Shown here: positions 1 to 508 of the stretch, piece by piece
Layout: the number at the start of each line of letters is the position of its first letter
Numbering within the stretch: the stretch's first letter is position 1
Assembly (NCBI RefSeq): GCF_003334315.1
Contig: NZ_QOWR01000003.1
Length of the DNA stretch: 64,000 nucleotides
Source: Escherichia coli
GTDB lineage: Bacteria > Pseudomonadota > Gammaproteobacteria > Enterobacterales > Enterobacteriaceae
Reading direction: 5' to 3' (one strand)
The notes under the pieces: model-generated
What the model saw: the letters and a program-made list of their open reading frames with translations, nothing else
Databases searched by the model: none
Told to the model about the DNA's origin: nothing
Position numbers and translations under genes: made by a program

Positions 1-77
1 ACACCTGCCGAACCCTGGACAATGGGACCGCCATACTGAGTCATATCTCCCTGACGCGCCGCTGGTTTTCCGCTCAT
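1..77 (-). CDS. rhsD: Rhs-family protein, 5' end only (runs off window start)
   Basis: Minus-strand ATG at 75-77 followed by codons for MSGKPAARQGDMTQYGGPIVQGSAGV, the conserved Rhs N-terminus; lies directly downstream of ybbP as in E. coli K-12. Confidence 0.7.
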   Translation of the reverse strand, partial: MSGKPAARQGDMTQYGGPIVQGSAG

Positions 78-508
78 ATAAAGTGCCCTTTTAGTTATTG
101 TTCATATCCCTGTGTTAGCAACAAAAAAAAAATAAAATGACACACAAGACCAGCTAATGTATTTATATATTTTTCACATAAACTTATTTGTTCTCAATCA
201 ACAACAACTGTTATTACAGGTCACTTTCAATATTTTATTAAACTAACATTTTTAGCACAGATGAATTCATCATCAACAAATTCACTATATGGATAATATC
301 CATTCAACGCATATGATTTATGATTTTATTAGTCTGAGTTATTTTTGTAGGGCTATATTTAAAATCAATAAACTCCACCGATTCAGATTAATATCAGCAA
401 TAGAAAGATAGGAAATCACCAATTCAATAACATCATCAATGAAACATATTGTAGAATTAATTTAAACAAGGCGTTCCATTCAACCAGAACGCCCCTTATT
501 TACTCTCA

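Follow-up and report, generated by a model that had tools for sequence, protein, structure and literature searches.

The described systems that come closest to the pair of sequences considered here are sigma-70 promoters, promoter islands, dispersed intergenic repeats and transcription-factor operators. A sigma-70 promoter combines a -35 hexamer, a spacer of 16-19 nt and a -10 hexamer, and its classical signature in a comparison of genera is a variable block flanked by two conserved ones. Promoter islands, 78 of which have been listed (PMC3661553, Panyukov and Ozoline 2013), are defined by their density of predicted promoters and not by a motif. Repeats of the REP/BIME and ERIC/IRU types are short non-coding sequences recurring in intergenic regions, present in tens to hundreds of copies, GC-rich or palindromic, conserved in structure and alignable over their full length. 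Operator pairs feature two near-identical sequences of ~20 bp upstream of two genes, conserved in orthologous promoters and lying at comparable positions.

We examined a window of 64 kb (the whole stretch of DNA analysed, 64,000 nucleotides), which is the reverse complement of the Escherichia coli chromosome at approximately 459-523 kb of K-12, in a strain that differs from MG1655. The initial annotation had reported two near-identical 23-bp sites, ATTCAATAACATCATCAATGAAA (copy 1) and ATTCATAAACATCATCAATGAAA (copy 2), and its description proved accurate: both are on the + strand, agree at 21 of 23 positions and share the exact 16-mer AACATCATCAATGAAA at 429-444 and 19908-19923 (spacing 19,479 bp), copy 1 standing between ybbP and rhsD and copy 2 between fsr and ybaL, both in non-coding DNA (Table 1). 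Each copy has a GC content of 22%. The K-12 counterpart of copy 2, ATTCATGAAC, is likewise identical to copy 1 at 21 of 23 positions. The orientation of the motif is sense relative to ybaL and antisense relative to rhsD. Both copies also contain ATGAAA, which starts open reading frames of 8 and 4 codons; these were rejected as trivial, the ATG on the ybaL side lying upstream of the transcription start site.

The 23-bp identity is real, but the shared functional motif that it implies most likely is not. Two explanations had been offered at the outset: chance in AT-rich DNA, which is supported by the match statistics, the sharp edges of the similarity and the lack of further copies, and a shared protein-binding site, which received no support. 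The data establish where the two copies lie, how the promoter maps, which bases are conserved, that copy 1 is accessory and how the match compares with chance. We put at about 88% the probability that the 21/23 identity is a coincidence of two unrelated AT-rich, promoter-like sequences. Compared with the systems above, copy 2 matches a sigma-70 promoter, of which it covers the -35 region and the spacer, with starts mapped in two genera and the classical block pattern recovered across genera; both ybaL hexamers are weak (4/6 each) and the spacer measures 18 nt. The DNA around copy 1 resembles a promoter island (PMC3661553) in being AT-rich, H-NS-bound, adjacent to a foreign gene and devoid of a productive rhsD start, and the 23-mer is not singled out within that island. 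The pair shares with REP/BIME and ERIC/IRU elements its recurrence as a short non-coding intergenic sequence but, unlike them, it numbers two copies, is AT-rich, lacks structure and has sharp edges. It also has the outward appearance of an operator pair; however, its core is unconserved at ybaL, and the positions and orientations of the two copies differ.

Table 1. Coordinates of the features discussed in the text (positions in the window unless a locus is named).
Feature	Position	Strand	Remarks
Copy 1	422..444	+	ATTCAATAACATCATCAATGAAA; K-12 NC_000913.3 522895-522917
Copy 2	19901..19923	+	ATTCATAAACATCATCAATGAAA; K-12 NC_000913.3 503315-503337
ybbP terminator-like hairpin	468..495	-	
Promoter island 522099_304	161..464	.	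PMC3661553; conversion assumes U00096.2 numbering; contains copy 1
rhsD SELEX promoter	213..241	-	PMC3946193; located in window; ~180 nt from copy 1
fsr terminator-like hairpin	19769..19795	+	Conserved across genera; separates fsr from the ybaL promoter
Conserved block TTCAACAATTATTCATAAAC	19891..19910	+	Upstream of and into the -35; cross-genus alignment
Putative ybaL -35-like hexamer TAAACA (K-12 TGAACA)	19906..19911	+	4/6 vs TTGACA; 18 nt upstream of the -10
Variable part of the ybaL spacer, ATCATCAATGAAA	19911..19923	+	13/16 bases of the shared exact core
Putative ybaL -10 hexamer TAAACT	19930..19935	+	-12 to -7; 4/6 consensus; inside TTGTCATAAACTA
ybaL transcription start site	19942..19942	+	Kim et al. 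2012, PMC3415461; coordinates mapped
TCATAAAC occurrences	16700, 19903, 19927, 27236, 40547, 50137, 50167		
~115-bp inverted repeat	L141:7696-7810 and L143:43657-43772	inverted	Came up while building the empirical null

At the ybaL locus, fsr ends at 19762 and the ybaL ATG stands at 20000, both genes being on the + strand, and copy 2 ends 77 nt upstream of this ATG. The start of ybaL transcription is already known from the start-site table of Kim et al. 2012 (PMC3415461), where 37 reads place it at NC_000913.2 502520, minus strand, giving a 5' UTR of 58 nt and the 51-mer TCAATAATTATTCATGAACATCATCAATGAAATTGTCATAAACTATTACCT upstream of the start. Once this published site is mapped onto the window, copy 2 extends from -41 to -19 of the ybaL promoter and takes in the -35 hexamer along with the greater part of the 18-nt spacer. 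For the ybaL ortholog of Klebsiella pneumoniae, the same table gives a start site with 150 reads and the upstream sequence CAAGAATTATTCATAAACAAAGTGAACGTTTTTGTCATAAACTATTACCCG (PMC3415461); this start aligns 1 nt further downstream than that of E. coli and belongs to the same -10 block. Around the published start, we infer the hexamers listed in Table 1. The locus displays a mapped start, hexamers at the positions and spacing of a sigma-70-type promoter, the -10 having A at -11 and T at -7, and conservation of these hexamers around a variable spacer. A consensus promoter scan at a threshold of 9/12 missed this promoter, and the RpoD SELEX paper on constitutive promoters (PMC3946193) does not mention it.

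The fsr-ybaL spacer was aligned across nine genera (E. coli, Salmonella, C. rodentium, K. pneumoniae, Enterobacter, the K. oxytoca group, Atlantibacter, Pluralibacter and Cedecea), the ushA-fsr-ybaL-gsk synteny being preserved in most of the aligned loci. The block TTCAACAATTATTCATAAAC is strongly conserved in this alignment, AAC within the -35 is invariant in all nine genera and, directly downstream of the motif, TTGTCATAAACTA forms 13 consecutive invariant columns that cover the -10 block. The 13-nt stretch ATCATCAATGAAA contains not a single invariant column. This part of the shared core is unconserved in Salmonella, Citrobacter, Klebsiella, Enterobacter, Atlantibacter, Pluralibacter and Cedecea, and it already differs in Salmonella, in a Salmonella-like locus (L136) and in a close Escherichia-like relative (L135). 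In K. pneumoniae, AAAGTGAACGTTT stands at its position while the same promoter is used. Since the spacer varies and the -35 and -10 blocks are kept, promoter spacer that is free to vary accounts for 13 of the 16 bases in the shared core. Lack of conservation in orthologous intergenic regions had been named in the initial annotation, together with a chance frequency genome-wide, as what would refute a shared motif, and this lack is what the orthologous ybaL regions display. Both mismatches of copy 1 fall in a stretch that includes part of the bases conserved at ybaL, and copy 1 lacks the invariant downstream block TTGTCATAAACTA.

Two of the loci compared carry insertions. In a locus of the Klebsiella oxytoca group (L127:~1870-1990), ~125 bp are inserted downstream of the ybaL promoter and ahead of the ribosome-binding site, so that this lineage would have a longer ybaL 5' UTR; the insertion includes AATCCCCTGGAGCTTACTGAAGTAAGTGACTGGGGTGAGCG, which we take to resemble an ERIC/IRU element. 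A different insertion of ~43 nt occupies the same place in the Escherichia-like relative (L135).

As for the conserved block TTCAACAATTATTCATAAAC, it may serve as an activator site or an UP-like element, and conservation upstream of the -35 suggests that the ybaL promoter may depend on an activator. The 8-mer TCATAAAC at 19903-19910 recurs 24 nt downstream, at 19927-19934, within the invariant -10 block. It is found seven times in the window, where 1.7 occurrences are expected and none of 100 shuffles reaches seven, and a second close pair, at 50137 and 50167, lies within amtB on the antisense strand according to coordinate mapping.

Copy 1 belongs to a very different context, a spacer of 431 bp with 28% GC delimited by the stop codon of ybbP (509-511, - strand) and the ATG of rhsD (77-75, - strand). 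Its distance from the ybbP stop is 64 nt, which puts it just beyond the terminator hairpin of that gene, and it is ~344-345 nt upstream of the rhsD ATG. This spacer is accessory DNA: 2907 of 5426 E. coli genomes carry it, and ~2500 others cease to be homologous at the ybbP stop codon. Five diverse rhsD-bearing strains show no variation in copy 1, an observation without discriminating power because the whole spacer is ~99% identical in these strains. More broadly, ybbP and mnmH (ybbB) enclose a hot spot at which type VI secretion (T6SS) effector cargo varies. This slot may hold the rhsD element, an Hcp-family effector gene with three DUF2931 genes (OV24) or nothing at all (ST131 MS14385), and an IS1-associated deletion is found there in strain AL.H8; the ybbP stop codon is the exact point at which the slot types cease to be homologous (window 1-508; loci L002, L131 and L132).

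The ybbP/rhsD spacer is itself already known from the literature as a promoter island associated with a foreign gene (entry 522099_304; PMC3661553, Panyukov and Ozoline 2013), assigned to H-NS category 'A', i.e., bound in all the H-NS studies compared (Table 1 of PMC3661553). Assuming U00096.2 numbering, copy 1 lies 20 nt inside the ybbP-proximal end of this island. SELEX with the RpoD holoenzyme yielded a "constitutive promoter" for rhsD, TTAATA-17-TGTAAT, which was flagged as an H-NS site (PMC3946193). The table of Kim et al. 2012 (PMC3415461) contains no start site for rhsD, and the Cappable-seq plus-strand sites, in the part of the list up to 1.09 Mb (PMC4782308), include none in the rhsD direction at 521.5-522.7 kb (U00096.2). 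Kim et al. 2012 (PMC3415461) do report a start site within rhsD, in its 3' end at K-12 NC_000913.2 526492, 313 nt upstream of ybbC; with a start there and none for rhsD, transcription of ybbC would not depend on the silent rhsD promoter. The context of copy 1 fits an H-NS-bound promoter island, AT-rich, accessory and with little productive transcription, H-NS binding being taken from the literature. Elsewhere in the spacer, at 259-283, GAATTCATCATCAACAAATTC partially echoes the core of the motif: it shares the 9-mer CATCATCAA with the 16-mer and is a low-complexity (CAT)n-like repeat.

The similarity between the two copies ends abruptly on both sides. An ungapped comparison detected no flanking similarity beyond the 23-mer, and gapped local alignment of the flanks reached a best score of 18, against a shuffle mean of 18.2. 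No third copy with up to 3 mismatches exists within the 64-kb window, and none with up to 2 mismatches in an additional 250 kb of K-12 (a count that covers ~7% of the genome), where seven sites differ at exactly 3 positions, most of them being coding. Of 5426 complete E. coli genomes, 5373 carry the 45-nt segment around copy 2, each of them once. A search of Rfam returned no match at either copy. Across 100,044 species genomes (298 Gb), the 16-mer was retrieved at no fewer than 120 loci, with ~140 expected by chance; none of the 120 matches listed belongs to Escherichia and all come from unrelated taxa, a result that fits random occurrence of the word and is uninformative for Enterobacteriaceae. 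All other long repeated words in the window correspond to REP/BIME elements, at 14498-14660, 21710-21797 and 33163-33310. Rfam naRNA4 matches cover 14576-14653 and 21714-21791, and sroB (ChiX RNA) lies at 15951-16034.

An important question concerns how surprising such a match is, and the answer depends on the DNA considered. Matches were scored without gaps at +2/-3, giving a score of 36 for this pair. At the scale of the whole window, Markov simulations predict, for 64 kb, 0.75-1.9 exact 16-mer pairs in direct and 1.3-1.7 in inverted orientation, and four block-wise dinucleotide shuffles yielded 1, 1, 1 and 3 matches scoring at least 36. The real window contains 15 such matches, 6 of them REP-related and 9 others including this pair, the eight remaining non-REP matches scoring equally or higher. 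When the comparison was restricted to non-coding DNA (43 annotated segments, 6.4 kb of the window), a score of 36 was reached in none of 509 shuffles (0/60 and 0/449; maximum 34), with p ~0.003 from a Gumbel fit.

To compare real intergenic DNA with itself, we also built an empirical null from the non-coding DNA of the window and of five other 50-kb K-12 pieces, totalling 192 segments and 31,280 nt. This pool gave 232 matches scoring at least 32, nearly all of REP/BIME type. The other non-repeat matches scored 34, 33, 32, 32 and 32, where the shuffle rate predicts ~1; the non-repeat tail of real non-coding DNA at 32 and above is ~3-5x heavier than that of the shuffles. Our pair is the top non-repeat match both in the non-coding DNA of the window and in the 31.3 kb of pooled E. 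coli non-coding DNA. Allowing for the heavier tail, our own extrapolation gives p ~0.01 per window, ~0.2-1 cases per genome of 72 windows, and tens to ~100 equally good pairs when all intergenic regions of a genome are compared. The pair is ordinary at the scale of the whole window and mildly unusual only given that both copies are non-coding. With 0/509 shuffles reaching its score and the pair standing as the best non-repeat match, the chance reading depends on multiple testing over many windows and genomes: when all curiosities of all windows are reported, such a pair should turn up by chance.

Two other matches emerged from these comparisons. The next-best non-repeat intergenic match of the window joins the terminator-like hairpins AAGGCCGCGTAAGCGGCCTTTT (42002-42023) and AAGGCCGCGAAAGCGACCTTTT (59386-59407), 20/22 identical, which probably reflects convergent terminator structure. 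The ~115-bp inverted repeat, which is not REP-like, is common to the K-12 ycbX-rlmL and cysP-ucpA spacers and consists of blocks of 55 and 60 bp.

The main alternative to coincidence is a shared site at which one DNA-binding protein (H-NS, Fis, IHF or low-specificity OmpR) acts at both loci and couples ybaL and rhsD in E. coli. We consider it unlikely, although the match is unusually good within non-coding DNA alone, both copies are equally poor in GC, copy 1 is embedded in DNA bound by H-NS in all studies compared (PMC3661553) and OmpR ChIP binding "at ybaL" has been reported, at the gene level and with species and position not given (PMC3945435); the available part of the OmpR ChIP supplementary data has no entry for ybaL, rhsD or ybbP. 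What the copies have in common is the unconserved spacer of the ybaL promoter, whereas copy 1 has mismatches at, or lacks, the conserved bases on either side of it. The geometry differs as well, from -41 to -19 in sense orientation at ybaL versus ~-345 from the ATG in antisense orientation at rhsD; additional copies are lacking both in the window (up to 3 mismatches) and in 250 kb more of K-12 (up to 2), and our literature search found no regulator targeting both ybaL and rhsD. Nucleoid proteins, moreover, bind AT-rich DNA without needing a 23-bp identity. OmpR or H-NS may still occupy both copies with low specificity, both proteins favouring AT-rich DNA. We know of no convincing match to the IHF, Fur, FNR, PhoP, PhoB, ArcA, CpxR or marbox consensus, although this comparison was made by eye and is given no weight. 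A narrower version, in which the 23-mer would be a recent E. coli-specific recognition or nucleation site (e.g., a high-affinity H-NS or OmpR-type site) in the ybaL spacer and at the edge of the rhsD island, appears quite improbable. If true, such a site would link expression of a K+/H+ antiporter to the silencing or de-silencing of an Rhs toxin locus, which even then would be a modest result: ybaL and rhsD would gain one small regulatory connection, specific to this lineage.

Common descent of the two copies, through a short patch copied by gene conversion or illegitimate recombination or as remnants of one mobile element, has a very slim chance of being correct. The copies are direct repeats on the same strand, and the ybaL 16-mer is specific to the E. 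coli lineage just as the rhsD island is lineage-restricted, but the similarity ends at 23 bp with or without gaps, and neither copy is accompanied by a transposase, repeat termini or target duplications. The ybaL sequence is moreover present in 5373 genomes regardless of rhsD, itself found in 2907. Typical gene-conversion tracts are far longer than 23 bp, which also counts against a copied patch. The probability that the pair represents a dispersed repeat family akin to REP, ERIC or Box C is negligible: two copies are known and no further one was found in the ~320 kb examined, neither site shows a palindrome or hairpin or matches an Rfam family, and their flanks are unrelated. The window does contain real dispersed repeats, the REP/naRNA4 elements at 14.5, 21.7 and 33.2 kb, but these stand out clearly in the same data.

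Under the preferred reading, coincidence, copy 2 would represent the -35 hexamer of a sigma-70-type ybaL promoter together with most of its 18-nt spacer; there, the position and length of the spacer would matter and the sequence of the shared core would not. Copy 1 would be part of horizontally acquired, H-NS-coated DNA upstream of rhsD, dense in promoter-like sequence and transcriptionally silent. No common protein, RNA or ancestry would connect the two, and we infer that no single factor reads both copies. A shared 16-mer or a 21/23 identity between two AT-rich non-coding regions is within chance once all windows are counted. The value of this work resides in a negative result and in the method, a cross-genus alignment combined with published start sites having sufficed to identify the shared bases as promoter spacer. 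As a by-product, the ybaL promoter is now precisely placed in the window, and the conserved block at 19891-19910 may deserve attention of its own.
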